Part shown: piece after piece, positions 15,738 through 45,266 of the stretch
Position numbering within the stretch: position 1 is the stretch's first letter
How the letters are laid out: every line of letters starts with the position of its first letter
Assembly: GCA_964361095.1 (NCBI GenBank)
Contig: CAYHZA010000006.1
Coordinates: 1,828-65,827 of the forward strand
Direction of reading: 5' to 3'
Length of the DNA stretch: 64,000 nt
Source of the DNA: an uncultured Candidatus Saccharibacteria bacterium
GTDB taxonomy: Bacteria > Patescibacteriota > Minisyncoccia > UBA6257 > 2-01-FULL-56-20
Translations under genes and position numbers: made by a program
The notes under the pieces: generated by a model
Seen by the model: only the letters and a program-made list of their open reading frames with translations
Databases searched by the model: none
What the model was told of the DNA's origin: nothing

Positions 15738-15744
15738 AAAAAAA

Positions 15745-27169: not shown

Positions 27170-29230
27170 TTACGCTTCGCGCTCGATTTCCCAAATCTCT
27201 TTTCCGATATACTTTTCGACGATTTCGAGATCTCGGAGAATTTTTTCTTCTTGGGACCGTTCCCGTTCGGAAAAAGAACCCGACTCTTTCGCCTTTTGGA
27301 TGAGCAAAAGTTCGGCGCGGATATCGCGGGAGAGAACGGCAAATCCCCGCTTGATCGATTCTTCGGCTTCTCGTATGTCTTCGAGTAATTTCCGGTGTTT
27401 TTTCTTTGCCTGTCGCCGATGATACAGTGCGAAGCAGATAAGGATAAGAAGCACAAGAAGAAGCGCAAGCGCGATCATAAAGTACACCGCTTCATAGCTT
27501 AAGCGCGAGGTTCCAAGCTGTAGCGCCGCCGCGGACACCGTAAGCCGAATCTGCGGGCTCGGAGGGCTTTGCACTTCCCCTACCCTCGCTTGCGCCCACA
27601 GCGAATATATGCCGGCGGAAAGAAGCTTCGAATGCGTGTAAAACCACTCTCCGTTTTTGTCTGCGGTTACGTTCATGCTTACGGTTTCGCCGCTCTCGTA
27701 ATTTTGAAGATAAAGAACGATCTGGCTGTTGGGAATCACCGCCACGCCCCCGACGTAGAAAATCTCACGATTGGTAATATTTTTTGAAACCTGCGTGATA
27801 ATCGGCGGGGATTCGAGGTTATTCGCGTTTTGGGCATACACTCCCGCAAGCGGAATAACGAACGAGATACCGAAGTAAAGAAAGAAAATAAAAATTCCTT
27901 TGTACTTTTCCCGAAGCGATGTGAGCTCCTCAAGCTTCTTTCGTATTTCTTCGGGCAGTTCCCCGGCGCGATGTTTTGCATCCACGCGCGTATGGCGTCG
28001 ATAAGACCGGTAAACAAGGAATACGGCGAAAATAATCGCGAGTATCCCTATTCCCCATACGACCGCCCAGGGAAGCACAAAATTTCCCCATAGCGTGAGT
28101 CCTTTGGTTTGCACAACGCTAAAAAACGACGTTGTAATTACCAAACGCTGTATTTCCTGGACATAGTTTCCCGCCTTGTCAAACGCGCGAACGAAGACGT
28201 CGTATTCGCCAAGCGAAAGTTCGGGGATATACGGGCTATTTGCCTCGATAAAAAAATTTTGCGCAGTGCGATTTTCGATATTTTCTCCTTCGGGAAGGGT
28301 GAGTCCGACGATCTTCAACTCATAATGGTCGAGTCCCGAAAGCGCGTCCGTCGTCTGAAAATTTATGACCGGCTTTCGAGTGACGGTGCGCGCTTTCGGA
28401 TTTATTTCAATGGTGAAATGCGCGGGCGGCGTCCCGTCGATCTTCAGCGAATAATGGGTAACGCCTCCCCAGCTGCCGCTCCGCAGAGCCTTGATATGAA
28501 AATAATAGATGTCATCGGAGAGATTTTTATACGATTGCGTTGTTTTTTGTCCTTCGGAAATATCGTCGGGGATGTCGATGGGCTGGTTATTCACTACGTA
28601 GCTGTATCCTTGCACGGGCTCATCGCTCCCCCATTGAAGACCGACATTCCGATTCGAATACCACTTTTCCTGGTCGGAATGCGTTGGAGAACTTACCGCA
28701 GGGCCGGCCGGAGGCGGAAGCGCAAGATTATAAATGCCCCCCGTTGTCTGTCCAAGAACGTCTGTCCCCCTCCCGTCGTTTAGGAGCACACGAGAAGTAT
28801 CCTCGAAGCGAATCACCGCGGTGCCGACGGAAACGACACGGAACGTTATTTCGGAGATGAGGCCGGCATTCGTGTTGATGCCCGGATTCGGGATAGCCCC
28901 CTGGAATTTTATGCTTCCCTTCCGATTATCGTACGTTGGTTGGACAACCCATACACCGACAAACGATTTTCCGGCACTTGGAGAAACAACCTGAAGTTTA
29001 TCAGAGGGGAATTTTAAATCGGCTTGGATCGCGTTGATGCTCTGGCTGTTTGTATTGACAAAAATGGAAACCGTAAACGTACTGCCAACAACGTATGTTC
29101 CGGAACTTGGTCCGACGAATAACGACGCGGGAGACGATTGGGCATGCGAACTAAAAAAAACGAAGAAGAGAAAGGTAACTCCAGCGGGGATAAAAATAAA
29201 ATTGGCACAATTTTTTTTTACAATGTTCAC
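27170..29230 (-). CDS. Surface protein: signal peptide, cohesin-like domain, FN3-like domain(s), three TM segments, cytoplasmic coiled-coil tail
   Basis: N-terminal domain (..LKFPSDKLQVVS..) is paralogous to the 30153..31445 protein. FN3-like ..YDVFVRAFDKAGN..; C-terminal charged heptad region. Confidence 0.6.
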   Translation of the reverse strand: MNIVKKNCANFIFIPAGVTFLFFVFFSSHAQSSPASLFVGPSSGTYVVGSTFTVSIFVNTNSQSINAIQADLKFPSDKLQVVSPSAGKSFVGVWVVQPTYDNRKGSIKFQGAIPNPGINTNAGLISEITFRVVSVGTAVIRFEDTSRVLLNDGRGTDVLGQTTGGIYNLALPPPAGPAVSSPTHSDQEKWYSNRNVGLQWGSDEPVQGYSYVVNNQPIDIPDDISEGQKTTQSYKNLSDDIYYFHIKALRSGSWGGVTHYSLKIDGTPPAHFTIEINPKARTVTRKPVINFQTTDALSGLDHYELKIVGLTLPEGENIENRTAQNFFIEANSPYIPELSLGEYDVFVRAFDKAGNYVQEIQRLVITTSFFSVVQTKGLTLWGNFVLPWAVVWGIGILAIIFAVFLVYRSYRRHTRVDAKHRAGELPEEIRKKLEELTSLREKYKGIFIFFLYFGISFVIPLAGVYAQNANNLESPPIITQVSKNITNREIFYVGGVAVIPNSQIVLYLQNYESGETVSMNVTADKNGEWFYTHSKLLSAGIYSLWAQARVGEVQSPPSPQIRLTVSAAALQLGTSRLSYEAVYFMIALALLLVLLILICFALYHRRQAKKKHRKLLEDIREAEESIKRGFAVLSRDIRAELLLIQKAKESGSFSERERSQEEKILRDLEIVEKYIGKEIWEIEREA

Positions 29231-29265
29231 GGTCTTCCTTTATGATGTCTCTTAATTTGTGGAAC

Positions 29266-30153
29266 TCAAGACTGTTTTCGAATTCTTCCTATCCGATACA
29301 TAAGAAATAATAAAAGAACGACGGCAATAAGCAAAATCGGAAAAAAGTTTTTAAGAAAAATCGGCCAGTAGTAAATTACTTGAGCGGCTTGATTCTCGAA
29401 ATTATCGGCAACCCGAAATCCTACCGCCCAGGCATTCGAAGGAATCGCCGCGGGATTATCGACAGGAGTCCACTCGCTCCAAAAAATCCATGTGCGATAG
29501 CGCGCCATTGCCTCCTTCACTCCCGAGCCGTTATCCCTTACAAGGAAGCTCAGAAACTGTTGATTCGGATTAAGGGGATCTTCTTCTAAAGCTAAAAAAC
29601 TGATCTCTGGTGGATTGATATCTTTTTTCTCCGTGATTTGAACAGGAGTTCCCTCGGAAATTGAAAGAGAGGCACTCTCCCGTTCTAAATCCGTTTTTGT
29701 TCCTTTCCCGTTCGCCATATAGGCCTCAGCTGTTTTAAATACGAGAGTCGCTTTGCCTTTTTGAATCGCCTTGAAACGGATGGTCAAAAGCTTTCCTTGA
29801 GACCCCGTGAACTCATGTAAGCTCCCTCCGACAATCTCAATCTCGCCCGGCTTGTTCAGATTGGGCTGGTTTTGCCAAACATCGATGATTGAATTGCTGT
29901 TATTGATTTCTTCCGCAAGAAGGGCGTCGGGAGAGTAAGCAACTACGATGTTATATGCATTGAGCGAAATATCGGAATCAATAAAAACGTTTGCCTCGAA
30001 TTCAGAATCTACGGAAATTGTCGCGGGGATATCAATGTAAAGCTTAGATGTCGCACCCATCGAAAAATTAGTTCCCCAAAGGAAAAAAATGGCAAGAAAA
30101 CAAAAAAGTAATAACGAAAATCTAATTTTAGTACCGAGAATTTTCTCCTTCAT
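29266..30153 (-). CDS. Secreted cohesin-like domain protein with C-terminal TM anchor
   Basis: Signal peptide (MKEKILGTKIRFSLLLF..), a beta-sandwich region (..TLVFKTAEAYMANG..), and a C-terminal hydrophobic anchor. Start at ATG 30153 overlaps the upstream stop (TAATG). Confidence 0.5.
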   Translation of the reverse strand: MKEKILGTKIRFSLLLFCFLAIFFLWGTNFSMGATSKLYIDIPATISVDSEFEANVFIDSDISLNAYNIVVAYSPDALLAEEINNSNSIIDVWQNQPNLNKPGEIEIVGGSLHEFTGSQGKLLTIRFKAIQKGKATLVFKTAEAYMANGKGTKTDLERESASLSISEGTPVQITEKKDINPPEISFLALEEDPLNPNQQFLSFLVRDNGSGVKEAMARYRTWIFWSEWTPVDNPAAIPSNAWAVGFRVADNFENQAAQVIYYWPIFLKNFFPILLIAVVLLLFLMYRIGRIRKQS

Positions 30154-31445
30154 TATTTTTGTACTATCCCAATTTGTTCCACTGTTTCGAACGTATGCTC
30201 GACTTTTCGATGCCACCGCCATAAAACGCGGACCGCATACCCGAGCGCAACAAGAAGCAAAAAACCAAATAAAACAACATAGGGCCAGGGGAAAAAATAT
30301 CCGCCCGCCAAGAGAATGCCCTTTCCGTCTAATATTTGAACAAGAGTATTCGCAATTTCCAGATCCTCTTTAGCTTCTTGAAAATTACCCGCCTCATCAT
30401 AGGCTCTTACGATAATCTGGTATCTTCCCAAGTCAAGCGACTCGGAATAGGGGGAGGCGGCTTCTATGAAAAACTCCTGACCAAAATTTGATGCGATTTT
30501 AGCGCTCAACACCTTAAGCTCATAGTGATCCATTCCAGAAATGGAATCTGTAGTTTCAAAGTTGATAACCGGATTTCTGCTTGCAGTTTTTTTACTTGGG
30601 GCAATTTGAATGCCAAATTTCGCCGGAGAAGTACGATCTATCTTTATGGCATAGTGGGTAATTCCTCCCCAGATGCCGCTTTGAAGCGACTTAATGTGGA
30701 AATAGTGAACGCCATCCGGAAGATCATCATACGTGGCAACTGCGTTGGGACCCTCTGAAACATTATCCGGATCATCGTTTATAGTGCTACTTAAAAGATA
30801 ACTATATCCCGAAACATCCCTAGGACCATCCCACCGCAATACAACATGATCGATATCATACCACTTTTCTTGATTCGGGTTGGTGGGAGAGGTTACCGAA
30901 GGACCCGCAGGTGGTGGAACAGTAAGGTAATACAGCCCGCTCGCCTTTTTCGTCAAAATATCGGTAGCGAGCCCGTCAGCGAGAAACACATGCGAAGTGT
31001 CCAGAATTTTTATCGGCGCCACTCCAACATTCATCACTCGAAAGGTAATTGTTGAAATAACCCCCGACTCGGTATTGATTCCGGGATTGTGGATGCCCCC
31101 TTGAAAGTTAAGCGTGCCATTCCTATTTGAATATGACGGCGGTGACGCCCAAATATCGATGAACGACTTTGCAATGGTAGTCGGCGAAACAACTTGTAGC
31201 TTATCCGGCGGGAAACTGAGATTTATCTCAAGGGCATTCACAAACTGATTGCCAGTGTCAAGATATAAGGAAACAGTGAACGTGCTCCCAACAGAAAAAC
31301 TCCCGCTTGAAGGGCCCAAAAAAACAGAGGCCGTTCCTCTTCCCTGCGCCAAGACCACATGTGGAAAAAAGAAAAAAAACCCCCATATCATAAGAATGAA
31401 CGCGGGAAACAACGAAAGAAATAAGACCTTATTTTTGATTATCAT
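30153..31445 (-). CDS. Surface protein: cohesin-like domain, FN3-like domain, C-terminal TM anchor
   Basis: Paralogue of the 27170..29230 N-terminal half (..LSFPPDKLQVVSPT.., ..YQIIVRAYDEAGN..). Confidence 0.6.
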   Translation of the reverse strand: MIIKNKVLFLSLFPAFILMIWGFFFFFPHVVLAQGRGTASVFLGPSSGSFSVGSTFTVSLYLDTGNQFVNALEINLSFPPDKLQVVSPTTIAKSFIDIWASPPSYSNRNGTLNFQGGIHNPGINTESGVISTITFRVMNVGVAPIKILDTSHVFLADGLATDILTKKASGLYYLTVPPPAGPSVTSPTNPNQEKWYDIDHVVLRWDGPRDVSGYSYLLSSTINDDPDNVSEGPNAVATYDDLPDGVHYFHIKSLQSGIWGGITHYAIKIDRTSPAKFGIQIAPSKKTASRNPVINFETTDSISGMDHYELKVLSAKIASNFGQEFFIEAASPYSESLDLGRYQIIVRAYDEAGNFQEAKEDLEIANTLVQILDGKGILLAGGYFFPWPYVVLFGFLLLVALGYAVRVLWRWHRKVEHTFETVEQIGIVQK

Positions 31446-31507
31446 ACGTGGAGGTGGTTCTTCTTATTATATACCTTTTTACCCAAAAGGATGTGGGGAA
31501 AAAACCG

Positions 31508-32428
31508 CTATGTAGTCCAATAGTAGAGAAGAATAGAAACATCAGCCATACTGACCGTACCATCGCCGTTAAAATCGGAACGCGCGACAGATTTATCTCG
31601 CCGCCCATAGTAGTAAAGTAAGATTGAAAAGTCTCTAATATCAATCCGCCGATCTCCGTTTAAATCTAATGTATCGAGAATATTCGAAACCGATGGCGGT
31701 CGCTCAGTAATTCTAGGGAGCGGTGGGCGGAGCGGCGGTCCTCCGCCGGTCGGTGGGACTTGAACAGTTCCTCCCTGTGGCGGCGGAGCGGGCGGTGTAA
31801 TTTGCGCTTGCGCCGAAAACGTCGGATAACGCGTGTAGGAATCAAGAACGGTTCCGGAAGAATATATCATTCGGAAAAACCAATCATTGGTCGTCGCGGC
31901 GGAGTTATTTTTTATCACCCAATCCCATTCTCCTCGTTGGCTGGCTGGAATCTCATTCGGCGTTTCGGCCGTCGGATTTGATTCCGAATACGATTCGCCA
32001 ACATTCGAATTCCCCAAAACCGGAGCGACGATTATCTGGCCATCGGAGACCCCCGGATTATCAGAAAAAATCCAGGGAGTGGACGTAGTAACATCCGCCC
32101 ACCCCGAAGAAGTAGTTGCTGAATATTGAAGCTTGAATATGGCTCCGGCGGGAAGCGCGAGAATTGTATCTTGGAGATTTATTCTCAAGCGAACCGTAGT
32201 TCCCGCGGCGGGTACAGTCGTTTCTGTATTCTCCGAATCAAGCGCGGTTCCGGGCGTAAGCGAGTCCGCGTTTGAGTACCACCGAAAATCACTTTGCGTA
32301 AGAGTGATAGTTGGGGCAGTAGTGACTACGCTCGTAGTTATCGGCGCGGCAAGGGCATTAAAAAAACCAAACGTGATGACAAAACTTATAAAAATTATAA
32401 AGATCTGATACCATTTCATTCCCAACAT
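31508..32428 (-). CDS. Secreted protein with Pro/Gly linker and C-terminal type-I-like dockerin (two Ca-binding repeats)
   Basis: DLNGDRRIDIRDFSILLYYY and DFNGDGTVSMADVSILLYYW repeats; linker PPAPPPQGGTVQVPPTGGG. Confidence 0.6.
   Translation of the reverse strand: MLGMKWYQIFIIFISFVITFGFFNALAAPITTSVVTTAPTITLTQSDFRWYSNADSLTPGTALDSENTETTVPAAGTTVRLRINLQDTILALPAGAIFKLQYSATTSSGWADVTTSTPWIFSDNPGVSDGQIIVAPVLGNSNVGESYSESNPTAETPNEIPASQRGEWDWVIKNNSAATTNDWFFRMIYSSGTVLDSYTRYPTFSAQAQITPPAPPPQGGTVQVPPTGGGPPLRPPLPRITERPPSVSNILDTLDLNGDRRIDIRDFSILLYYYGRRDKSVARSDFNGDGTVSMADVSILLYYWTT
31741..31796. repeat. ~56-bp DNA segment encoding the Pro/Gly linker; near-identical copy at 39015-39070
   Basis: ctccgccggtcggtgg(g/a)acttgaacagttcctccc.. 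with about 4 mismatches between the two copies. Confidence 0.6.
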
Positions 32429-32432
32429 TCAT

Positions 32433-33380
32433 TTATCTCTGCATTCTGCGCTTTCTTCTTTTGAGCACCATTCGAATGAAGATAATAAAAACAAATAAGG
32501 AGAAACCTATCGCGTAGTAAATCCAATTGTCTTGGAGTGATCGCAAGAAACGTTCCCGAGGATTCGAGAGTGTTCCCTCCTTCAAAACATTGAATATCGC
32601 CCGCTCGCTTTTTATAACCTTCTCTTCTTGATAAAAACTTACGCTTGCCCAATACTGCCCCAAGCCGAGATGAAAATTGATCGGAAACTCAACGACATAT
32701 TCTTTTGTCGCAAAGGGAGGTGTTTCCGGAAAGTCTTTGCTTTTGGGAACATAGGCAAGCCGTACCGCGCCAAAATTGTCAAAAAGTTCGAATGTGGCCG
32801 CGTCAAACGCTTCGGGTACGTTGCCGTCATTCACAAATTTTACGTATGCTCGCGGAGCCCATCCCTCCTCAATGTCGAGAAATTTTACCAGGGCGACATT
32901 AAAATTCCGATAGATATCGTTTCCCACCGTCACATTGATAGCTATCTGCACTCCGAGCGCGATGGCAACCTGACCACCCTCCGTTGTCGGACCGGCGGTG
33001 AAACGTAAATTTCCATGATACACCCCGAGAGCGGCATCTTTGGGTACATCTATTTCGATAGTTAAAGGAAATTGGCGCACTCCTTTTGGAATAATAACTT
33101 CTTTTCCTCCGTTCACCACGAACCAATTTCTAATCCGTTCGTTTACCTCGAGATTTGTTTGTATTTTTACATCATTATCGGGTTGATCTTGAACCAAATA
33201 AACCGTTTGCGAATAATGAGCGCCGGGAACCAAGTGGCTTTCGTTTAAAAACGGAGGAGAAATACCGAATGCCGCGTTTGAAACATGAGGATAAAAAATA
33301 AAAGCCCCAAGCAAAAAGCCGGAAGCGACAATAAAATAAAGAAGGCTAATATTTCGAAAGCCCCTATTCATCTCATTCAT
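32433..33380 (-). CDS. Secreted two-domain protein with C-terminal TM anchor (unknown function)
   Basis: Signal peptide, beta-rich domains, and a terminal hydrophobic helix followed by KRRKRR. Confidence 0.5.
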   Translation of the reverse strand: MNEMNRGFRNISLLYFIVASGFLLGAFIFYPHVSNAAFGISPPFLNESHLVPGAHYSQTVYLVQDQPDNDVKIQTNLEVNERIRNWFVVNGGKEVIIPKGVRQFPLTIEIDVPKDAALGVYHGNLRFTAGPTTEGGQVAIALGVQIAINVTVGNDIYRNFNVALVKFLDIEEGWAPRAYVKFVNDGNVPEAFDAATFELFDNFGAVRLAYVPKSKDFPETPPFATKEYVVEFPINFHLGLGQYWASVSFYQEEKVIKSERAIFNVLKEGTLSNPRERFLRSLQDNWIYYAIGFSLFVFIIFIRMVLKRRKRRMQR

Positions 33381-33459
33381 TATATCATATCAATATTGAC
33401 TTAACAAAACAATAAAACCCCCGGTAATCTAGGGGGTTTTATTGTTTTGTTTCAAAGTT

Positions 33460-34434
33460 CTATGGCTGGAAAAGCGAGGTGAAAAGAGTAACACCCGTAT
33501 ACGTACCCGTTGGTGTACCGGCAAGAACTTCAAGTCCCCAGAATGTTACCTTTGCGACATTCGAAGTACTTGTGGGCGAAGTCAAGAGAAAACCCGTTAC
33601 CGTTACTGCCGATGCGGTAAGTTGAGTGGCGCCACCCGGAAAGGTAAATGTTGATGTGGCAAAGCGCTGGCTACTCGTTGCGATCGCATTTGATCCCGAA
33701 GTCAGCGTTGCTGTCGCCGAGAGTTGAAGCGTCGTCGTTGAATTCCCGGCGTTCGTTGATGTCGCTGTTTGGTTTGATGCTCCGGACGTACTGCTTGCGG
33801 AAAGCGTTCCATAATTTATCGAAGATGTTGTTACATTTATTGCGGTTAAGGTGAGAAGTTCAACTCCAGCGGAATCGGTACTACCCGTGGCATTACTCGG
33901 ATCTCTAAATATTACCGTACCAATCCAATTTTGCGAAGCAAAGGTCGAGGAAGCATCGGTTGCCTGCGCGAAGTATTGTACCGCAACAGTAGTCGTTGTA
34001 TTTGTTGTTCCGCTCGAACAGGTACTTGACGCGGTAAAGGCGGTTGCCACATAACAATTTGCCGCGTCCGGAGTCGCAGAAGCCATACACGTTGATGAAG
34101 TTATTCCGGAGCGGTACAACAAAACCGTTGTACTCGCATTAATACTGGTAATGTCTCCGCAACCGTTATTGTCGCTGATGGTCGCGTTGATGCTTACGTT
34201 TGTCGTGGTATTCGCTGTAAGAACAATACTGCTTGCGGCATTTAAGACGACACTGGTAACCGTTGGGGCCGCGTTGCCAACAATGACGGTACTTGACGCC
34301 GTTTGCGTGGTACCCGCGGCGAAAATAGTATTCGGAATCATAGGGAGAAAGTTAAAAACAGTCCCGAAAAACCCTACGATTAAAATAGCTAAACCTATGC
34401 CGAATCCCAAGTACTCAACTTTCAATTTGTTCAT
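33460..34434 (-). CDS. Thr/Ser-rich secreted protein; C-terminal ~180 aa paralogous to the C-terminus of the 1395-aa protein
   Basis: Shared ..DATDASS.FAS.NW...V...D.S...GS....GVE...L.AI.VTTSSINYG.L..SST.G..NQ.. block. Confidence 0.5.
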   Translation of the reverse strand: MNKLKVEYLGFGIGLAILIVGFFGTVFNFLPMIPNTIFAAGTTQTASSTVIVGNAAPTVTSVVLNAASSIVLTANTTTNVSINATISDNNGCGDITSINASTTVLLYRSGITSSTCMASATPDAANCYVATAFTASSTCSSGTTNTTTTVAVQYFAQATDASSTFASQNWIGTVIFRDPSNATGSTDSAGVELLTLTAINVTTSSINYGTLSASSTSGASNQTATSTNAGNSTTTLQLSATATLTSGSNAIATSSQRFATSTFTFPGGATQLTASAVTVTGFLLTSPTSTSNVAKVTFWGLEVLAGTPTGTYTGVTLFTSLFQP

Positions 34435-34526
34435 ATGACTTATTTATTATAAGTATACCAAAAACGATTTGAATCGTACTGTGCATAACTAAACCCCGTT
34501 AGAGAAGCAGGGTATTGAAATAGACT

Positions 34527-37500: not shown

Positions 37501-38714
37501 CCGTTCTCTTCGATTGGTTGGATAGTGGTTTCGCGCGAAAGTAGAGGCGGCAAATCGTAGTGAACTTCAACTAACATTCCGTCAAGATACGCCTTTGGAA
37601 TTTCGCCGATGGTTGTGGGAATACCCTCGACGCTGATTTGCAAACGCCGCAACTCATCCCATGAGCGCACCGGTAACGTCACCGTATAATTCCGCCAATT
37701 TGATTCGTTGACCTTCGCGAGTTCAACCCACGTCTCACCGTCAAAACTATAGTTAATTTTTAGGAAATTATCGTCAGGTGTAGTGTCATTTATGATGGGT
37801 TCAACTTCAGATTGCGGTGTCGGATTTTCTTTGGTTGAGGATACCATTCCTTCGTCCTTATCTTCTGGCGGCACTATTTTTGTTTCTTCGGAAATGGGAG
37901 ACGAGGATACTTCGGACTGGGGCACTAATTTCTCTTCGCGGTTTTCAAGTTCTTGCGCCAAAACTTGATTCAGAAGCGGGCGAAAAATCGAAAAACTTTT
38001 CCGAAGCGGAAGATGAAGATAACTTTGTGGCGCGCTATTTTCTGCGGGAGGAGCGGGTTCCACAATCTGACTTGTTGTTTGAGCTTCCTCGGTGGGCGGA
38101 GGACTCGGCAACGGCTCCGGAGGAGCAACCTCTTTTTTTAGAGGACCTTCACTTGGAGTTTGGTCAGTACTCGTTGCGATTGGCGGCAGCGGATCATTAC
38201 TTTCCGTCGTAGTTGCCGGCACGGGCAGATCTATGACAGGTTCAGGTGTTGTTGATACGGGAATCGACACGGGAGATGGAGATCCTCCGCCCTGCGACTG
38301 AGATTCTCCAACGTGCCAGACGAGCGTTAGGCCAACATTTTTAATTTCTCCCTCGCCTTCATAATCTTGTGGTACAAAATTGCCGCAAAATATGTTTTTT
38401 GCTTCTTTCGTGTAAATACTTGAATTCGCTTGCGTGAACAGCTGGCCATCGGACCCGAATGTCTCCGGCTGACTTTGCGCGTTTTGCGGATTTTGCCAGT
38501 CGCCAAGACAGGTTTCTGGATAAAAATCGGAAACGTCGGCTCTTATAAAAATACTGTTTAAAACAAAGGGTGAAAATAAAAGTGCCAAAACAATAACCGT
38601 AATCGTAAGAAGCCGAGAGGTATCACTGCGGATTGAGCTTCGAAGGATTTTGAAGCGATGAAAAGAAACACCTAAAAATTTCCCCAAAAAATTCCGTTTG
38701 CGCGAGGAATGCAT
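34527..38714 (-). CDS. Giant (1395 aa) membrane-anchored surface protein: Pro-rich stalk, multiple beta domains, H-x-H motif domain, shared C-terminal domain
   Basis: N-terminal signal-anchor. The central ~450 aa is paralogous to the 594-aa protein (WDGATIPNGWTCISC.., spaced HTHTW / HLHDH / SHTHS motifs). Confidence 0.6.
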   Translation of the reverse strand: MHSSRKRNFLGKFLGVSFHRFKILRSSIRSDTSRLLTITVIVLALLFSPFVLNSIFIRADVSDFYPETCLGDWQNPQNAQSQPETFGSDGQLFTQANSSIYTKEAKNIFCGNFVPQDYEGEGEIKNVGLTLVWHVGESQSQGGGSPSPVSIPVSTTPEPVIDLPVPATTTESNDPLPPIATSTDQTPSEGPLKKEVAPPEPLPSPPPTEEAQTTSQIVEPAPPAENSAPQSYLHLPLRKSFSIFRPLLNQVLAQELENREEKLVPQSEVSSSPISEETKIVPPEDKDEGMVSSTKENPTPQSEVEPIINDTTPDDNFLKINYSFDGETWVELAKVNESNWRNYTVTLPVRSWDELRRLQISVEGIPTTIGEIPKAYLDGMLVEVHYDLPPLLSRETTIQPIEENGSLENTPRIITLPDGKKPLPTRPNQKDFGPSETPSFDLNLDDLPIPSSTIQSSFSPPAQSQGPASYARPQKSHFAWLGFFLNLFRNSAEAQSNLSPGNLPTLSNPIIARIIGPDGKETNIEPILLNVNNQLRISIPEPEREFHPGRYTLRLWILKNSVIYFTENDFTWGVLAVNFNKSIYAIGDTARIGFGVLDDQGHTICNANIETQIKAPSGRTIFLSTANKKIKRNLSCGPETVTNEPDYSASIKADESGTYEVSVSARTPNGGRTITDIFRVEQAPRFSVERIGPTRIFPPAIYKMTMHIVANEDYAGEIREIVPLSFNITNELNSKKENRIHDQTITWNVNVKAGESAELNYFFKAPNVSPELYKLGALEIGSWQESRKWQIAADAAGEVILLWDGATIPNGWTCISCVATDPFFGVFPRASSTYGSASSSADNVTHTLTFSSYTQGTGIGINTAAIGTFSATEAHTHTWGNPTLASEDIRPIFGNLKFISAATTTLPNGTIGIFDVAVASLPSGWSSYSAFNGDGISPLNVQRYLRGDADGLTGGASTHNPTTTAALTSGASAGRLDDSGNGKNTDPHLHDHTIPAASTIGADNNTPPFITVVFAQLGATSSIPDGLIALFDNASLPSNWSIVSTSGSAYAGKFLKGASSFGSTGGSSTHNHTASTTFANIASNSGNAVNKSGTAANAADTSHTHSVTYTVSSATSLPVYRDVILGKYTAPAGGSAPTVSGVTINSSTAIILTPAATTTIIARASTSDPDGAGDIRYATSTIYRSGAGGTANCPANNSNCYQLASSSCSFTDSTSTVSCSAEIYYFADATDASSSYSGENWLARITVTDASSNATASTTASGVEMSTLLAIDVTTSSINYGSLTPSSTTGGTNQILSIKNVGNSSSTLKISGTALTLGSNSIATSSQHYATSTFTFGGFEQVLSSAATAVSGFLLTSPTSTNTVSSPTYWGIEVSTGKATGTYTGVNTFTAVFSP

Positions 38715-38797: not shown

Positions 38798-39331
38798 TTA
38801 TGCTATCCAGTAGAACATAAGGACTGACACATCGGGGAAATCAACCGTTTTATTTCCGTTCAAATCATACCTCGAAATTTTAGGCCCAAATTCTTCGTAG
38901 TAAAAAAGCATAATAGAGAGATCCACGATATTACACCGCCCATCGTCATTAAAATCGCATTTCTTTATTATCTCCGGAGTTATTACCGGTTTCTGGGCTT
39001 TCGGAGGAATTCCACCTCCGCCGGTCGGTGGAACTTGAACAGTTCCTCCCGATGGCGGCGGAGCCGGCGGAGTTAGAGGAGTAGCCGGTGTCACGGCCGG
39101 AAAATTTAAAAAGCCACCACGCAAGACGAAGGACGTGCTCGTGGAAATTCCGGTTCCCGGCTGGCCGATGCTTGTACGCAAATTAAACCCGCTTGAAGTT
39201 GCGCCGCTTCCGCCCACGTCAATAACTCCCGCTTCTATTTTAAAATTTGTCGAAGTCGCGGAATCGGCAAGGACTAAAAACGGGAGGCCAAGCAGAAAAC
39301 CGATTATAAAGACGGTAATTCCTTTTTCCAC
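38798..39331 (-). CDS. Small secreted protein with Pro/Gly linker and C-terminal dockerin
   Basis: DFNDDGRCNIVDLSIMLFYY and DLNGNKTVDFPDVSVLMFYW repeats; linker PPAPPPSGGTVQVPPTGGGG. Confidence 0.6.
   Translation of the reverse strand: MEKGITVFIIGFLLGLPFLVLADSATSTNFKIEAGVIDVGGSGATSSGFNLRTSIGQPGTGISTSTSFVLRGGFLNFPAVTPATPLTPPAPPPSGGTVQVPPTGGGGIPPKAQKPVITPEIIKKCDFNDDGRCNIVDLSIMLFYYEEFGPKISRYDLNGNKTVDFPDVSVLMFYWIA
39015..39070. repeat. Second copy of the ~56-bp linker-encoding DNA repeat (see 31741-31796)
   Basis: Sequence comparison by eye. Confidence 0.6.
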
Positions 39332-39337
39332 CGTTTC

Positions 39338-39820
39338 TTATTCGCCATTTTGGCTTAAGAAATTTTTTATCGATTGCACTACTTGTGAATTATCCTTGAG
39401 ATTCTCCCAGAATATAATGGCGCTTCTTGGTACATACATCATATCCTCTGGCCCGTGCAGTTCGCTTCCCAGTTTTACCAAACTTAAATCGGGAACTGCT
39501 CCCCCGCCCTGCTGGAGCGCTTGGCTCGCCCGCAAGTAAAAAATATTCTCAAGGGCGACATATTCCTTGGTTACTTCTTTAAGGTTTCCGAAATATACCT
39601 GATCGTTATTTAAAAAGACCGCCTGCCATTTGTTTTCGTCAATCTTTGGAAAAGTTTTTACGAGAAAGAAAAGGTCTCCAACTTGAAGAATAAGAATAAG
39701 GAGTAGCAAAATAAATACAGCTCCAAAACCCTTTTTGGATCGAGATCGTTCGCCCTCCGGCGCCCCTGCGTTCATAAGATCTTCTGGAGAATTTTTTCTA
39801 AGGTTATTAATGCTATTCAT
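39338..39820 (-). CDS. Membrane-anchored hypothetical protein
   Basis: Charged N-terminus, one TM helix, and a ~110-aa extracytoplasmic domain. Confidence 0.45.
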   Translation of the reverse strand: MNSINNLRKNSPEDLMNAGAPEGERSRSKKGFGAVFILLLLILILQVGDLFFLVKTFPKIDENKWQAVFLNNDQVYFGNLKEVTKEYVALENIFYLRASQALQQGGGAVPDLSLVKLGSELHGPEDMMYVPRSAIIFWENLKDNSQVVQSIKNFLSQNGE

Positions 39821-39858
39821 ACAATTAATATTATCACATCGCCCCGCGCCTGTCAGAC

Positions 39859-42800
39859 CTATGGAGCAGGCGAAAATTCGCCCGGAGATTGTGGAATGTC
39901 CCCTGGCTCGGTAGGTAATTCCTCGGGAACCACTCTCAGGCTTGGATGAAGTATTGGAGATTCCACAGGTGGGGTTGAAGAAGGAGTGGAAGTGGAAGTG
40001 GAAGTGGAAGTCGATATCGGATCTTCGCCTGCAGGATTTTCGCCCTGTGTTTCTCCGTCATTATTGTGAGCATTTTCTGAATTCGATCCGCATACGCCCG
40101 GAAGCGTCTTCAAAATCCCGTCTTCAACCTGAACGCAATATGGATTCTTTGTTTGTACATCGAAGATCGTAAAACCAACAGGCGTCTCGGGAGAACCGAT
40201 TGTCAGTTTCTCTACCGTAAGTTCGCGCATTGAATAAGCCATTAAAGGATCAAGGTTGTAGTTATTAATAATTGAGGTGTTGATCCCTCCCTGTCCGTAA
40301 CCCACATATCCCTGGAGATTACTTCCACCGAGGACGTTTGTTTTCCATTGGGGACTCATAAATGCGAGCACTCTACCTGTGTCGGCGATCGATGTTCCCC
40401 TAAAAGCTTCCATTGCGATCGCGACAACCTTTCCGGAATTCGTTGCTTTCATCGCATAGCCCAGCGTGTCCGACGAAGTCAAATAATCACCCGGCTCAAT
40501 CGGCCCGTTCTGCCCAGTCACTTTTACCGGCAAACGCCCCGCGAGCGCCATGATGATAGAGCCGCGCCCGTCATCACCGCCGCCCGCGACAAGGCCTGCC
40601 GTTTCCGTTACCACTCCCACAAGTTTTTGATCGTACGCCACTCTCGATTTTTCAAATTTCCCCGGTTTCGCAACCGATATGGAAAGGAGGTCTCCCGCCC
40701 CGTAATCTTCGGCGGGACCAACGACTTGGACGAATTCGCCAATGTCCGCCTGCCCTCCATAGATCGAACCGCGCGCGATAATTGAGTTCGCGGTGGTTGA
40801 GCCGTCGGCAGAGGCAAAAAATGCGACAGTGTCCGTTGTGCTTGCGGCCGTCGGCACTGTGCAGTTATTTTTTGCGCAAACTGTAAGCGTGCTTGTTGCG
40901 CTAAATTGCGTCGAAGTTGCAATAGCGATAGTACCCGAGGCGATAACAACCACAGAACTCGACGCCGTAGAACTCCCCACAATAAGCGACGTTCCGAAAT
41001 ATCCCGTGCGAAAGATTCTACCCACCGTTCCAAGGTCAAAAGCATTCGTAAACGAAGGAACGGTATCCAAACTTGTCGAGGAAAGCCGAAGCGTTGAGGT
41101 GTTGTTGATTCCGAAAATAAGCGTAGAGGACGCTACATTCGTCCCCGAACCTCCTTGCGCGATAAAGTTTCCTCCCTTCGTAAACCCAAGAGAATCAGTC
41201 GCTCCCATCGCGCCGCCAAAGGTCAATTTCGGGCCGACATTCGCGGTATTCGCCGCGTTCGAGATAAACATCGTTCCCGCCCTGCCGAGAATCAAGTCCG
41301 CGGTGTTTGTCGCGTTGTAACTCGGAGTGATTTGCGCGCCGATTGCGTTCATAGATTTGACCGGTGATGTTTGGAGGTTTCCACTAAGCTGTAACCCCCG
41401 TAGTGTTCCCCAAGCCGCGCTTGAGGCGTGGATTGACGTAAGCCCCGTCCCTTTGAAAAGGGAAAACGAAGAAAACGAACCGAGAAGCGGCGAGGAGTTT
41501 GGATTCCCCGAAATAGATACTTCGTGTCCGGTAAAAGTACCCGCTACGCCTGTTCCGCCTCCATCGGTGGACTCAAAACCATCAACGAATATAAGCCCAT
41601 AGTTTCCCCCGGTGATGACAGCGCTTGCTCCTATATCCGTGTCAAGCGTCGCGTAAAGTCTAATCCCATTACTCCACCCGCCCTCTGTATCTGAATAATC
41701 TTCACCAATGGCTAAAATCGTTCCGTTCGGGTTGGGTTGGTTCCCAGAAAGAGATGAACCTTTGCCGATAAGCAACCTGCCATTCACTACCGCTCCCTGT
41801 GTAGAGCCGGAAGGGTATGAGGGATAAAGTTGTAAAATCGTAGTCCCCGAAGCGTCTTTGAGGTTCAATCTTCCGAATACCTGCGAAGAACTGCTCCTTG
41901 ACCACTGGAGAGAGTCATCAGCTCCGTTAGTCGTGAAGGTCAGCGTATCTCCGAAAATAGTCGAGGTGGAGGTGAGATACGCAAGATTTGCCGCGAGCGT
42001 ACCCGTAAGCGTAGTCGTCGCTCCCGTAATCGTGGAAAGAGTGGAAGCTCCAGAAATATTCAGCGACGCTCCTTGAAGAAAGCCGCTTGCGGTAAAATTG
42101 GTCGAGGAAACATTTGCGAGCGTGGATTGGCCGGAAATATTGAGGGACGTGCCCTGTAGATACCCCGAGGCAGTAAGATTTGTTCCGGAAGCATTTGTGA
42201 ATCCCATGGTCGGAAATATTCCATAGCCCGATGCGGTGATATTTGTTGAGGAAACCGCCGCAAGAGTTGACTGTCCGGAGACATTAAGCGCCGCTCCCTG
42301 GAGGTAACCAGAAACAGTAAGGTTGGTTCCTGATGCGTTCGTGAAATTCAAGGTTGGGAAAGTGCCGTAGCCGGTAACGGAAATGTTGGTAGACGAAACA
42401 TTGGTGAGCGCGGCGTTCGTGGAGTTCAAAGTCGGAAATGTCCCGTAGCCAAAGACGGTAATATTGGTCGAAGAGACGTTCGTCGAGGAAACAGTAGTAA
42501 GGGCAAGAGACGTTCCCGTAGCGTTCGTGAACGTAATCCCGCTTAACGTCGTGATCCCTCCGACATTTAATGTGTTTGAAAACACAACGGCACCCGCGAA
42601 TGTGGAACTCCCATTCGGAAGATTAATGCCGCCCGACGGATCGAGCTGTAGCACATTATTCGCCGAAGTCCCCGCATGCGCTCCGTCAACTGTGTCGGCG
42701 TTAATCGCGAATCCGGAAGCAACAATTGACTGGCGGGGGGTAAGCGTCTCGAACGCCGCCGTGCTCGTACTATAGACTTCAATTTGAAGGTAATAAATCG

Positions 42801-43155
42801 AGGAGGTATTGAAATCCAAATTCAGCGCCGAAAACCCCTGGTTCGTATCGCCAATCCGAGCGTCGAACACCCCGCTTGTTATCTTGTGCGTGGTCGAAGC
42901 GGGCGCGCTCGCGGGCCAAAGCCGGGTTCCCAATCCCACAGTTGAAGTGCTCCAAATGGAAAACTTGAAATCAAAGTTTGTCCCTGCTGAACTTCCTTGG
43001 AGATTCCCGCTCGCATCCTCAAGCCTGCCCTGATAATTGATGATCTGCGGCACTGCTGCATATGCGCGAACAAAGAACGCCAACGCAGCAAATGCAAATG
43101 CAAAAGAAAGTAACTGAAAAAATGGCCTGTCCTTGAAACGTGCCATAAAGTTCAT
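39859..43155 (-). CDS. Giant (1098 aa) secreted Thr/Ser/Asn-rich repeat protein (fibre/adhesin-like)
   Basis: Signal peptide; ~15 degenerate tandem repeats of the form TNxSxTNxTxSGY..; C-terminal STSTSTSTPSSTPP Pro-rich tail. Confidence 0.6.
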   Translation of the reverse strand: MNFMARFKDRPFFQLLSFAFAFAALAFFVRAYAAVPQIINYQGRLEDASGNLQGSSAGTNFDFKFSIWSTSTVGLGTRLWPASAPASTTHKITSGVFDARIGDTNQGFSALNLDFNTSSIYYLQIEVYSTSTAAFETLTPRQSIVASGFAINADTVDGAHAGTSANNVLQLDPSGGINLPNGSSTFAGAVVFSNTLNVGGITTLSGITFTNATGTSLALTTVSSTNVSSTNITVFGYGTFPTLNSTNAALTNVSSTNISVTGYGTFPTLNFTNASGTNLTVSGYLQGAALNVSGQSTLAAVSSTNITASGYGIFPTMGFTNASGTNLTASGYLQGTSLNISGQSTLANVSSTNFTASGFLQGASLNISGASTLSTITGATTTLTGTLAANLAYLTSTSTIFGDTLTFTTNGADDSLQWSRSSSSQVFGRLNLKDASGTTILQLYPSYPSGSTQGAVVNGRLLIGKGSSLSGNQPNPNGTILAIGEDYSDTEGGWSNGIRLYATLDTDIGASAVITGGNYGLIFVDGFESTDGGGTGVAGTFTGHEVSISGNPNSSPLLGSFSSFSLFKGTGLTSIHASSAAWGTLRGLQLSGNLQTSPVKSMNAIGAQITPSYNATNTADLILGRAGTMFISNAANTANVGPKLTFGGAMGATDSLGFTKGGNFIAQGGSGTNVASSTLIFGINNTSTLRLSSTSLDTVPSFTNAFDLGTVGRIFRTGYFGTSLIVGSSTASSSVVVIASGTIAIATSTQFSATSTLTVCAKNNCTVPTAASTTDTVAFFASADGSTTANSIIARGSIYGGQADIGEFVQVVGPAEDYGAGDLLSISVAKPGKFEKSRVAYDQKLVGVVTETAGLVAGGGDDGRGSIIMALAGRLPVKVTGQNGPIEPGDYLTSSDTLGYAMKATNSGKVVAIAMEAFRGTSIADTGRVLAFMSPQWKTNVLGGSNLQGYVGYGQGGINTSIINNYNLDPLMAYSMRELTVEKLTIGSPETPVGFTIFDVQTKNPYCVQVEDGILKTLPGVCGSNSENAHNNDGETQGENPAGEDPISTSTSTSTSTPSSTPPVESPILHPSLRVVPEELPTEPGDIPQSPGEFSPAP
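41955..42545. repeat. Degenerate tandem coding repeats (period ~39 nt/13 aa, with a higher-order ~117 nt unit) inside the 1098-aa gene
   Basis: Repeated ..SSTNITASGYG.FPT..FTNASGTNLT.SGYLQG..LN.SGQSTLA.V.. units in the translation. Confidence 0.55.
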
Positions 43156-43304
43156 CTATTTTATTATATATTAACACGCGAAAAACTGTGGCGGAAGGGT
43201 GTGCATAAATCAAGCCGCATAGCAGTAATTAGCAGTTAGAACTTAGCCAGTAGAAAACTCGGAAATTTATTTGATCTACGCCCCCTCAACTAAGGTGAGA
43301 TACT

Positions 43305-43366
43305 TTCTTAATTTTCATTAGGCCTTTTGCCTGCCTGCCGGTAGGCAGGGCTATGAAAATTAAGAA
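43305..43366. other. Two-tier hairpin (14-bp perfect outer stem TTCTTAATTTTCAT/ATGAAAATTAAGAA enclosing a GC-rich inner stem) between the 594-aa and 1098-aa genes
   Basis: Read directly from the sequence; there is no adjacent U-tract. Confidence 0.45.
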
Positions 43367-43481
43367 ATACATCGAACCATTATTATTGGCTACTATCTAC
43401 TTTTATTTGACTTTTTATTTTTTGGCATTTTTTAGAGATTAAAAAACCGGCAGATGTGAATAAAATCAATTTTCTTGCTCT

Positions 43482-45266
43482 TTAGCCCCCCGCGATCTGT
43501 TTTAAGAGCGATGAAAGGAAAGTATTTATGATTTCGAGAAGTTTAATATAGAATTGCTGAATTTTATCTTCAAATTGTCGGTATTCGGTAGGAGAAAGAA
43601 TTTTTGCTGATCCCGGAGTTGAATTTATGGGTAAGGGAATTTCATTCGAGATTTCTGGTGGTCGTGGTGATACCGGCGAAAGAGAGCCTCCATACGAAGC
43701 CGGTACGCCGATGGGAATTGTCGCAGGTGTCGGAGCTGGCGTTGGAGATGAAATGGTGTTTACTTCAACGCCGGATACCGTAGTTGAACCGTATATATTC
43801 CCGGCACTGTCGGTTACTGTTATAGTCGCAAGCCAATTTTCCGAAGAAAAATTTGAACTCGCATCGGTCGCTTGTGTCGTATCGTCAAAACTCGCGGTAC
43901 AGCGCACCGTACTCGTGGAATCGGTGAACGCGCAGCTTGAGCTCGCGAGTTGATAACAATTTAAATTACTCGCCGCGCATGTTGCGCCGACAGCCGATCG
44001 ATATATAGTAGAGGTGGCATAACGTATATCCTCCACTCCATCGGGGTCGCTTGACGATGCACTTACGGTAACGGTGGTGGTCGCGTTGGAAGTTAAATTG
44101 ATATCTTGCCCACTATTCAAAAGAACACCGGAAACTGTTGGATCTTGATTCGTATATTGTCCTAAAATCACGTCGCGATATACGGGAAAAGAATTTTCCG
44201 CGCTGCTTGAAATGGCATAGGTCGCGCTATGGGTATGCGACCCAATGGCGGCGTTTACGTCGAATGTATCTTGTATCACATTCGTGGTAGCGCTTGGCAA
44301 GCCGCTTGTGATCGCAGTGCTCGTGTTGTGGCTGTGACTGCTTGATCCGGCAATTGTCCCGAACGCATTCGATCCTTTTAAAAGCCTTCCGGCGTACGCG
44401 CTCCCAGAAGTTGAAACTATGCTCCAGCCCCCGGGCAACGACGAGTTATCGAAGAGCGCGATCATCCCATTGGCGGGCGTTGATGTTGTTCCCAGCTGAG
44501 CGAACACAACCTCGATCGAAGGCGGCGCGTTGCTGCTTTCCGTAAGGCTCCCGGAAATCAGTATGTGTGTATGCGAAGTCGTGCCAATGTTCGCATTCGT
44601 AAGGGTAGTGTTGGTGCCCTCGCTTCCGACTGCCGATCCCGAAGTGACCGCGCCGCGAGAATGGGTATGCGTTGAAGCGCCTCCTGTCGAGGTCGTTTGT
44701 GCGCCTCGCAAGAAGTTTCCGTTCAGTGCGGAATAGTACGACCAATTTGTCGGCAACGAGCTCGTGTTTGATACGTTAAAGATCCCTATGACTCCGTTGG
44801 GCAATGTGGTTGTCGCCGCCTGGATGAATTTGAGATTTTTAAAAGGCGGCCGCACATCGCCGGTTCCTATCGAGGGGCTGCTCCAAGTGTGTGTATGGAA
44901 TCCACTCGCTACGTTCACCTGAGAATCGGTTGAGATCTGAGTGGTGCCACCGAAATCAGCGCTTGAGAAGGTAAGCGTATGGGTTACCGTATCGGTTCCC
45001 GAAGAAGCATTCGCGTATGAAGAACTTGCGCGAGGAAATACACCGAAAAACGCATCTGTGGCTGAGCAGGAAATACACGTCCAGCCAGTGGGAATAACAT
45101 CCCCTTCCCACATGAGAATAAGGTCCCCTGCGGAACCATGCGCCTCTTGGGGAGGCGACTGGATAGGAAGCTTATTGTCTTTCTGATAGAAAAAGAACGC
45201 AGCAGACGCAAAAACGAAAATAAAAATCAGGAAAAGAGCGGCATGGAAAAATCTTCTTGATTTCAT
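43482..45266 (-). CDS. Secreted 594-aa protein paralogous to the central and C-terminal regions of the 1395-aa protein (H-x-H motif family)
   Basis: Signal-anchor, LILMWEGDVIPTGWTCISC.., and five spaced motifs (HTHTW, STHTHS, SHTHIL, SHSHNT, SHTHSA). Confidence 0.6.
   Translation of the reverse strand: MKSRRFFHAALFLIFIFVFASAAFFFYQKDNKLPIQSPPQEAHGSAGDLILMWEGDVIPTGWTCISCSATDAFFGVFPRASSSYANASSGTDTVTHTLTFSSADFGGTTQISTDSQVNVASGFHTHTWSSPSIGTGDVRPPFKNLKFIQAATTTLPNGVIGIFNVSNTSSLPTNWSYYSALNGNFLRGAQTTSTGGASTHTHSRGAVTSGSAVGSEGTNTTLTNANIGTTSHTHILISGSLTESSNAPPSIEVVFAQLGTTSTPANGMIALFDNSSLPGGWSIVSTSGSAYAGRLLKGSNAFGTIAGSSSHSHNTSTAITSGLPSATTNVIQDTFDVNAAIGSHTHSATYAISSSAENSFPVYRDVILGQYTNQDPTVSGVLLNSGQDINLTSNATTTVTVSASSSDPDGVEDIRYATSTIYRSAVGATCAASNLNCYQLASSSCAFTDSTSTVRCTASFDDTTQATDASSNFSSENWLATITVTDSAGNIYGSTTVSGVEVNTISSPTPAPTPATIPIGVPASYGGSLSPVSPRPPEISNEIPLPINSTPGSAKILSPTEYRQFEDKIQQFYIKLLEIINTFLSSLLKQIAGG

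Follow-up and report, generated by a model that had tools for sequence, protein, structure and literature searches.

A chromosomal cohesin-dockerin gene cluster that may anchor surface fibres or adhesins in a Parcubacteria-like bacterium of the Candidate Phyla Radiation

Eleven consecutive genes on the minus strand of a 64-kb stretch of DNA from an uncultured, ultra-small, Parcubacteria-like bacterium of the Candidate Phyla Radiation (CPR) appear to form a chromosomal cell-envelope locus that, in the reading held here with moderate confidence, builds surface fibres or adhesins and anchors them by means of cohesin-dockerin pairing. The stretch, 64,000 nucleotides (nt) of contig CAYHZA010000006.1 (GenBank assembly GCA_964361095.1), is referred to throughout as the window, and the cluster occupies its positions 27170-45266. 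Three of the genes encode membrane proteins with a cohesin domain and two encode secreted proteins with a two-repeat dockerin; among their neighbors are a PapD-like protein, a small subunit with two immunoglobulin-like (Ig) domains and several giant fibre-like proteins. What is new is a CPR appendage or adhesin locus that would use cohesin and dockerin for membrane anchoring, and that would share its logic and one module with the Pam pilus and the WxL clusters of other bacteria.

The initial annotation of this DNA, made from its letters alone, had described eleven minus-strand genes whose products each carry a signal or anchor segment, and that description holds. The open reading frame list of the window gives eleven consecutive genes, and a Kyte-Doolittle scan (simple hydropathy, not SignalP) places an N-terminal hydrophobic segment in all eleven products, with further transmembrane (TM)-like segments, terminal or internal, in the three cohesin proteins and in the PapD-like protein of 315 amino acids (aa). 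The genes are separated by short gaps or overlap, the exception being 326 nt at 43156-43481, between the genes for proteins of 594 and 1098 aa; this gap is without a match in an Rfam scan of the window and may be the boundary of a separate transcription unit. By blastp, the 430-aa and 686-aa cohesin proteins match at 46% over about 420 aa, the 1395-aa giant matches the 594-aa protein at 55% over about 480 aa and, through its C-terminus, the 324-aa subunit at 48%, while the dockerin proteins of 177 and 306 aa match at 42% across linker and dockerin. The Thr/Ser-rich paralogous families that had been proposed are borne out by the matches among the 1395-, 594- and 324-aa proteins.

The largest of the cohesin proteins (686 aa; 27170..29230, minus strand) was recognized by its Pfam Cohesin match, TM-like segments and orthologues. 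It consists of a signal segment, the cohesin (residues ~35-178), an FN3/Big_13-like region (~179-385), a TM segment, a short cytoplasmic loop, a second TM segment, a second extracellular Ig-like domain (Big_13, 498-549), a third TM segment and a charged cytoplasmic tail of 83 aa. The hydropathy scan finds TM-like segments at 388-406, 446-464 and 584-602 besides the signal segment, as had been expected for a protein said to have three TM segments and a cytoplasmic tail. That tail (residues ~604-686; 27170-27420), with 21 Lys or Arg and 19 Asp or Glu among its 83 residues, is kept in nearly all large-cohesin orthologues and is an unusual feature for a cohesin protein. Full-length orthologues at 45-48% identity are present in five (L001-L005) of the 14 related loci (L001-L014) that were searched with module profiles, and all three profile regions of the protein are found in every related locus but L012. 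The small cohesin protein (29266..30153 or 29266..30222, minus strand; 295 or 318 aa, depending on the start codon) has a signal segment, the cohesin, a short Ig-like region and a C-terminal TM segment, at 293-311 of the 318-aa form. Its gene stands ahead of the large one in L001, L003-L006, L009 and L011-L014. The third (430 aa; 30153..31445, minus strand), paralogous to the 686-aa protein over the latter's first ~420 residues, carries a cohesin, an FN3-like region and one TM segment at 390-408.

That the N-terminal domains of these three proteins are cohesins is supported by Pfam model PF00963, which recognizes the 686- and 430-aa proteins at 31.8 and 31.5 bits, above the gathering score of 24.1, and the 318-aa protein at 23.2 bits, marginally below it. 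In addition, a CPR profile built from 22 N-terminal domains of the window and related loci, which also matches the 318-aa protein, retrieved 23 sequences from the PDB, all but one of them cellulosomal cohesins (22 of 23; best E 4.9e-7). The initial annotation had spoken of FN3-like domains and TM anchors behind the cohesins; the TM-like segments are there, whereas the FN3-like domains are weakly recognized (Big_13 at 26.8 bits vs a threshold of 27, and a weak OmpL47-type match). Its term "scaffoldin-like" likewise fits in that membrane-anchored cohesins stand beside secreted dockerin partners, and is loose in that every protein carries a single cohesin. Because of that single cohesin, the three proteins are best regarded as anchors and not as scaffolds for multiple enzymes.

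The complementary dockerins are found in two proteins. The first (306 aa; 31508..32428, minus strand) has a signal segment, a beta-rich N-domain of ~190 aa, a Pro-rich linker and a two-repeat dockerin at residues 251-305 (31514-31678), with calcium-loop motifs at residues 255 and 285. It exceeds the gathering score of 22.9 for Dockerin_1 (PF00404) at 34.5 bits, and its weak sequence matches in the PDB are all to dockerin modules or dockerin-bearing proteins. The second, a candidate adaptor (177 aa; 38798..39331, minus strand), has a signal peptide, an N-terminal module that is taken up below, a Pro/Gly linker and a two-repeat dockerin at residues 123-177 (38801-38965), which at 20.1 bits falls below the same score. 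In both proteins two D-x-N-x-D/N...D loops are each followed by an S-I/V-L/M-L/M/F-Y/F-Y helix, and in the family alignment the loop and helix positions of the 177-aa protein are kept in 25 relatives. The two dockerins claimed from the sequence are thus upheld. In the 306- and 177-aa proteins the linkers are almost the same, 'PPAPPP-x-GGTVQVPPTGGG' (31700-31790 and 39000-39060), with a sortase-like V-P-P-T-G that lies away from the C-terminus. This VPPTG, inside the Pro/Gly linkers of both dockerin proteins, is the only such motif in the cluster proteins, from which a C-terminal LPXTG-type sorting signal is absent. The linker of the 177-aa protein is not conserved in its wider family; because a near-identical linker is nevertheless present in the 306-aa protein, recent gene conversion between this genome's two dockerin genes is suggested.

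The 177-aa protein provides a link to a recently described CPR appendage. Troman et al. 2026 (bioRxiv 10.64898/2026.03.03.709456) solved filaments of Ca. Mycosynbacter amalyticus, which are built of the pilins PamA and PamB. The N-domain of each pilin has nine strands, its C-domain is a truncated Ig domain, and the linker contributes a donated strand; conservation is highest in the linker and in the site that binds it, and the cysteines are paired. On the basis of AlphaFold models they propose that assembly proceeds with membrane-anchored FimC/PapD-like chaperones, PamC/D, and a tip subunit, PamT, but no usher, and that PamR, an RbmA-like FnIII-TM protein, serves as terminator and as anchor; among the conserved neighbors of pam is a "tail fibre-like protein". 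Directly after its signal peptide the 177-aa protein has a 57-aa module (residues 24-80; 39092-39262) with three S/T-x-F-x-I/L strands, and the NCBIfam model for PamT (NF058579, CPR_pilus_PamT) matches the protein over the N-terminal ~70 positions only, with 31.2 bits and an E of 1.3e-7 against a cutoff of 240. An exhaustive HMMER search, made with this module by itself, returned 103 representative proteins at E <= 1e-3, in which it always lies just behind the signal peptide. The PamT model recognizes 76 of the 82 that were aligned (best E 8.8e-15), Pfam Dockerin_1 recognizes at least 35 of them, and a two-repeat dockerin was present in all four N-module sequences inspected by eye. Judging from these sequences, one polypeptide as a rule carries both the PamT-like module and the dockerin, and as a rule it is encoded beside cohesin anchors. 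The gene is accompanied in the window by one for a small single-pass membrane protein (160 aa; 39338..39820, minus strand), homologues of which lie directly upstream of the N-module dockerin gene in L002 and close to it in L005; the protein has no family match in Pfam, NCBIfam or PHROGs.

Between the first dockerin gene and the giants lie two genes whose nature the initial annotation had missed, as it had the PamT-like module. The first encodes a membrane-anchored two-domain protein (315 aa; 32433..33380, minus strand), a candidate chaperone or holder that is PapD-like or WxLIP-like. In an AlphaFold2 model from a 56-sequence alignment (pLDDT, the predicted local distance difference test, 91.9) a pair of beta-sandwich domains is followed by a C-terminal TM helix; the structures that match it best are those of the WxL-interacting protein, WxLIP, and of FimC and other pilus chaperones. 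The modelled protein corresponds to what is described for PamC/D, namely a membrane-anchored PapD/FimC-like chaperone. Its family, which is without a Pfam or NCBIfam assignment, has 209 homologues, and all of the named sources are Patescibacteria, Parcubacteria or Minisyncoccia.

The second gene encodes a small Thr/Ser-rich protein with two Ig domains (324 aa; 33460..34434, minus strand), a candidate major fibre subunit or surface module. In its AlphaFold2 model (pLDDT 79.7) an N-domain of about nine strands (residues 58-187) is followed by a strand at 191-195 and then by the C-domain. The 56 members of the family, at 53-69% identity, have four conserved cysteines that form two conserved pairs, a single conserved W-G-L/I near the C-terminus, and a peak of conservation in the inter-domain linker (residues 196-210), which is coil in the monomer model (pLDDT ~71-73). 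This pattern parallels the conservation reported for the donated linker of PamA/B and is among the observations in favor of the proposed surface-fibre reading. A Pfam scan of the 315- and 324-aa families (56 members each) gave only weak PapD-like (three members) and GH123_N_2 matches, and PDB sequence searches yielded nothing useful for the 324-, 315-, 594- and 1098-aa proteins singly, or for the profiles of the 324- and 315-aa families. The 324-aa gene is closely followed by a terminator-like hairpin (33418..33435, minus strand) and preceded by a promoter-like site (34446-34473), both from a consensus scan only; they give no more than a hint that this gene may be expressed above its neighbors.

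The 324-type module is also carried by a giant. The 1395-aa protein (34527..38714, minus strand), a candidate tip or displayed adhesin analyzed by blastp, the 324-family profile and motif listing, is composed of a signal anchor, a Pro-rich low-complexity region, beta domains, three tandem 'LP-x-GW ... H-x-H' modules (residues ~793-1123; 35346-36338) and, at its C-terminus, a complete 324-type module (residues 1134-1395; 34530-35315) that the 324-family profile recognizes with an E of 1.6e-80. A giant with the fused module stands directly upstream of the small subunit and PapD-like genes in six independent loci (the window, L001, L009 and L011-L013). The 594-aa protein (43482..45266, minus strand), a paralogue of the C-terminal half of this giant, has three LP-x-GW modules of its own (44172-45149), the 324-type N-domain only (profile positions 34-184), a Pro-rich stretch and a C-terminal amphipathic helix, and no family, PDB or phage match. 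The modules of both proteins conform to the consensus 'G-x-I-x-L-F ... LP-x-GW ... G-x-F-L-R/K-G ... GG ... H-x-H ... H-x-H'; they are reminiscent of phage tail-collar and metal-binding fibre motifs, with no Pfam, PHROG or phage match to them. The remaining giant is a Ser/Thr/Gly-rich fibre-like protein (1098 aa; 39859..43155, minus strand) with ~48-aa tandem repeats at residues ~215-390 between conserved N- and C-terminal domains. The N-domain recurs beside cohesin genes in L002 and the C-domain in a 1896-aa giant of L014; searches of Pfam, PHROGs, the PDB and phage sequences gave no match to the protein.

Relatives preserve the cluster as a unit, in two recurrent arrangements. In Type I (the window, L001, L009/L010, L011, L012 and L013) the order is a giant with a C-terminal 324-type module, a 324-type subunit, a 315-type PapD-like TM protein, a dockerin protein, a small cohesin-TM protein and a large cohesin protein. 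The 306-type N-domain and the three-TM tail of the large cohesin are each found in all of these but L012, and orthologues with 306-type N-domain and dockerin follow the PapD-like gene in L001, L009, L011 and L013. The dockerin gene always comes directly after the 315-type gene, separated from it by only a few bases (in the window, 4 nt). Where flanks are annotated, Type I adjoins fmt, def, an S41 peptidase gene and the genes for L9 and L27, and relatives at this shared chromosomal site have 315-type proteins that are ~50-57% identical. In L009 (11900-13204), L001 (7587-8894) and L013 (5804-6151 and 11932-12279) the cluster contains inserted small genes of PDDEXK_3 or 23S_rRNA_IVP type, or such genes precede the small cohesin gene in an in-frame fusion; they may be selfish elements or mis-called starts. 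In Type II, a simpler form seen in other CPR lineages (L002, L004, L005, L006 and L014), a protein with the PamT-like N-module, often with fn3 and Big_6, and ending in a dockerin, is followed by the small and then the large cohesin; the 160-type TM protein stands at the start in two of these five loci and a 1098-type giant is adjacent in two of five. The metagenome-assembled genomes of Type II are labelled Doudnabacteria, "Saccharibacteria", Minisyncoccia and, for the full locus of L006 (CAZNKO010000006.1), "uncultured Gammaproteobacteria", a label that is more likely an artefact of binning or labelling than a true non-CPR occurrence. Just past fmt/def beside the Type II locus of L014 (Minisyncoccia) are two proteins with Ice_binding domains and a sortase (11851-15742). 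Both arrangements are present in the window, together with an additional cohesin paralogue (the 430-aa protein); the cohesin pair is common to both types, and several related loci adjoin fmt/def.

Since the cohesin and dockerin matches are significant, with calcium-loop positions kept, and since the genes travel as a unit, the checks set for the initial annotation confirm its observation; its interpretation as a surface assembly is partly supported. It had missed three elements, the PapD-like 315-aa protein, the two-Ig 324-aa subunit fused also to the 1395-aa giant, and the PamT-like module of the 177-aa protein, that now shape the proposed mechanism. The analysis shows the domain identities, the paralogy, the synteny and the predicted fold of the 315-aa protein; the mechanism built on them is a proposal. 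Three TM proteins, the largest crossing the membrane three times, would each expose one cohesin outside the membrane, and two secreted adaptors with calcium-type two-repeat dockerins would plug into them; the support for this pairing is the conserved adjacency of the genes in related loci. The N-terminal parts of the adaptors, the ~57-aa PamT-like module and the ~190-aa beta domain, would bind fibres. One set of cargo would be the 324-aa subunit, the 1395-aa giant with the same module and the 315-aa protein, and a second the two further giants of 1098 and 594 aa, the assignment of either adaptor to either cargo being conjectural. Through beta-strand complementation, in the way suggested for PamC/D and WxLIP, the 315-aa protein might hold 324-type modules or assemble them, and the 1395-aa giant could join the structure through its C-terminal module as a tip or a displayed adhesin. 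The appendage would in this way be fastened non-covalently to the membrane, in a two-piece substitute for PamR or for sortase/LPXTG anchoring, with the adaptor at either its base or its tip. A version in which the 324-aa protein polymerizes into a Pam-like filament is quite possible and tentatively preferred; a version in which it is only displayed, in the manner of WxL proteins, is somewhat unlikely.

Several observations weigh against this reading. The fold of the 324-aa model gives generic Ig/FnIII matches only, with RbmA the top match in Foldseek (E 1e-5), so that a donor-strand-exchange pilin fold is conjectural. No NCBIfam model matches the 324- or 315-aa protein, and the only Pam model of NCBIfam matched by any cluster protein is that of PamT, in its N-terminal part only and at 31 bits vs 240. 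Troman et al. do not mention cohesin or dockerin, and they assign the Pam pilins chiefly to Saccharimonadia and Microgenomatia; the ATP synthase genes that are conserved beside pam operons are absent from the window. Counts of promoter- and terminator-like sites in the region do not exceed shuffled expectation. Lastly, the flanks retrieved for the Type II loci contain no 315- or 324-type gene beside the cohesin-dockerin triad, and the triad is therefore independent of those genes.

The best-surviving alternative, which is nonetheless doubtful, is a WxL-like surface display without a filament, in which the membrane-anchored 315-aa protein would hold the module shared by the 324- and 1395-aa proteins and the cohesin-dockerin genes would be a separate display device next to it. 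WxL clusters combine one WxLIP, with two Ig-like domains and a TM helix, a small module-only protein and a large protein with the module at its C-terminus (PMC10599100), a layout much like that of the 315-, 324- and 1395-aa proteins. Against it, DUF916, DUF3324 and WxL find no Pfam match among the 56 members of either the 315- or the 324-aa family. The WxL domain, moreover, binds peptidoglycan and has dual W-x-L motifs, compared with the one W-G-L/I conserved here. The dockerin gene that always follows the 315-type gene by a few bases points to one unit and argues against a separate display device.

It is less probable still that the cluster is a bona fide Pam operon orthologue, working exactly as in Ca. 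Mycosynbacter amalyticus, with the 324-, 594- and 1395-aa proteins as PamA/B/E-type pilins, the 315-aa protein as PamC/D, the 177-aa protein as PamT and the cohesin-FN3-TM proteins as PamR. The PamT match of the N-module, the TM anchor of the PapD-like protein, the two-domain subunit with its conserved linker, the anchors with FN3-like regions and TM segments, and giants where pam operons have their "tail fibre-like" neighbor would all accord with orthology. PamT, however, is a protein of 241 aa without a dockerin, of which ~70 residues match here, and no ATP synthase lies in the neighborhood. Because no cluster protein reaches a Pam family threshold, and because cohesin and dockerin are foreign to the system as described, strict orthology is unlikely.

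A set of phage-derived tail-fibre genes, or a chance neighborhood of unrelated secreted proteins, is very improbable. A likeness of the LP-x-GW ... H-x-H modules to phage tail-collar or tail-fibre motifs would favor it, and the base composition, uniform across the window, does not set the cluster apart. A phage remnant was rejected when searches of PHROGs (none of seven cluster proteins matched), scans of viral contigs and tblastn against 50,697 phage records came back empty for the fibre-like giants, and a chance neighborhood is countered by the tight or overlapping gene spacing and by a gene order that recurs in relatives at the shared site next to fmt, def, the S41 peptidase, L9 and L27, with 315-type proteins still about half identical. 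Two known kinds of pilus were also rejected, the chaperone-usher pilus since no usher family was matched by a cluster protein in family scans that included Pfam and NCBIfam, and the sortase-dependent pilus for want of a C-terminal LPXTG signal. A cellulosome-like complex for polysaccharide degradation is the least probable of all and is rejected, because the cohesin and dockerin domains that would suggest one, and that a groundwater study took for one in other CPR, come with no glycoside hydrolase, carbohydrate-binding module (CBM), polysaccharide lyase or esterase domain in any of the eleven proteins or in the dockerin proteins of related loci, as the initial annotation had held for glycoside hydrolases, and with no multi-cohesin scaffoldin bearing a CBM, each protein having one cohesin and the dockerin partners carrying Ig, fn3 or uncharacterized beta domains.

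The window comes from a Patescibacteria metagenome-assembled genome with NCBI locus tags AAB652_018xx. The flanks of the cluster hold housekeeping genes (fmt, S41 peptidase, SOD, FtsW, MurG, a Mur ligase and GluRS), and no signature of a mobile element was found in them. The sole Rfam match of the window is one tRNA gene (48034-48104). A protein with a Schlafen AlbA_2 domain is encoded downstream of the cluster (52159-53148) and is seemingly unrelated to it. About 8 kb away, at 16902-19163, is the gene for a 753-aa protein with a DsbD-type transmembrane domain, which may be relevant to disulfides in the Cys-paired surface subunits.

CPR bacteria (Patescibacteria) are thought to live attached to hosts and, beyond type IV and Pam pili, it is little understood how their surface structures are built and anchored without an outer membrane. 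The locus, which many Parcubacteria-like genomes keep at one chromosomal site next to fmt/def, brings together elements that had earlier been discussed separately: cohesin-dockerin modules, a PapD/WxLIP-like protein with Ig-type subunits, and the PamT N-module. If the proposed reading is true, it offers a testable anchoring mechanism for the appendages of episymbionts, and the predicted pairs (two dockerins with three cohesins, and the 324-type module with the 315-aa protein) consist of small soluble domains. A broader proposal, which is possible but less likely than not, is that cohesin-dockerin pairing is the general way in which many CPR fasten surface fibres or adhesins to the cytoplasmic membrane, with a PamT-like or another fibre-binding module fused to the dockerin, and that the three-TM cohesin protein uses its coiled-coil-like tail to connect the appendage, by mechanical means or through signals, with the inside of the cell. 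Cohesin and dockerin proteins of groundwater CPR are expressed and were read as a "cellulosome" in a metaproteome (10.1101/2021.08.21.457207), and the Saccharibacterium Southlakia has an essential dockerin protein (PMC10633639). Were the broader proposal true, some of these "cellulosome" and essential "dockerin" annotations might describe anchoring and not carbohydrate degradation; the proposed reading of the locus would itself suggest how to understand the essentiality of a dockerin in a cultivated Saccharibacterium, and would correct the annotation of cohesin and dockerin in CPR.

Comparison with known systems shows what the locus borrows and where it departs. Chaperone-usher pili (Pap/Fim) also place a PapD-fold protein beside genes for Ig-like subunits, and the 1395-aa giant, with its N-terminal "adhesin" part and C-terminal subunit module, resembles FimH and PapG. 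The locus, in contrast, lacks an usher and belongs to a cell without an outer membrane; its chaperone-like protein is anchored in the membrane, and donor-strand exchange would be present by analogy only.

With cohesin-dockerin systems, cellulosomal or not (such as the anchoring scaffoldins of Clostridia), the locus has in common the cohesin beta-sandwich, the two-repeat EF-hand-like dockerin, and the placement of the cohesin at the cell surface and of the dockerin on secreted partners. Peer et al. are said to have reported in 2009 that both modules occur outside cellulosome producers. The CPR proteins differ in having a single cohesin each, in their attachment by TM helices (including the three-TM form with a cytoplasmic tail) in place of S-layer homology (SLH) domains or sortase, in partners that are Ig, fn3 or PamT-like modules rather than enzymes or CBMs, and in a lineage-specific signature of the dockerin helix, S-I-L-L-Y-Y(W).

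The WxL clusters of Firmicutes (PMC10599100; PDB 9i1y) provide in WxLIP (DUF916/DUF3324/TM) the best structural match of the 315-aa protein; common to the two are a pair of Ig-like domains, a TM helix at the C-terminus and a conserved strand at the N-terminus. The 315/324/1395 trio reproduces their pairing of a small module-only protein with a large one that carries the module C-terminally behind binding domains. The DUF916, DUF3324 and WxL families of Pfam are unmatched here, however, the module being a tandem of two Ig domains and not a WxL domain, and cohesin-dockerin genes form no part of WxL clusters.

The closest parallels are with the Pam pilus, compared here through the NCBIfam models and the description by Troman et al., and by that standard no cluster protein attains a Pam family threshold. 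The PamT-like module is fused to a dockerin, whereas neither dockerin nor cohesin enters the Pam description, and anchoring would be split between a dockerin adaptor and a cohesin-TM protein, as against the single PamR. In place of the N-terminal strand, two FnIII domains and C-terminal TM helix of PamR, the cohesin proteins have weak FN3/Big_13-like regions and TM segments, the cohesin replacing the strand. The ATP synthase neighborhood is missing, the lineage is Parcubacteria/Paceibacteria-like and not one of Saccharimonadia or Microgenomatia, and a filament is here no more than predicted. The 324-aa model resembles the PamA/B layout in its N-domain of about nine strands, linker and C-domain, but its fold matches are generic Ig or RbmA. 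Both systems appear to be CPR-specific, Sec-dependent and usher-less; both have a PapD/FimC-like protein with a C-terminal TM helix, two-domain Ig-like subunits in which the linker is the most conserved part, paired cysteines, a membrane anchor that joins FnIII (here weakly FN3-like) regions to a TM segment, and giant "tail fibre-like" proteins nearby; and the N-terminal module of PamT is detectably common to the two (E 1e-7 to 9e-15).

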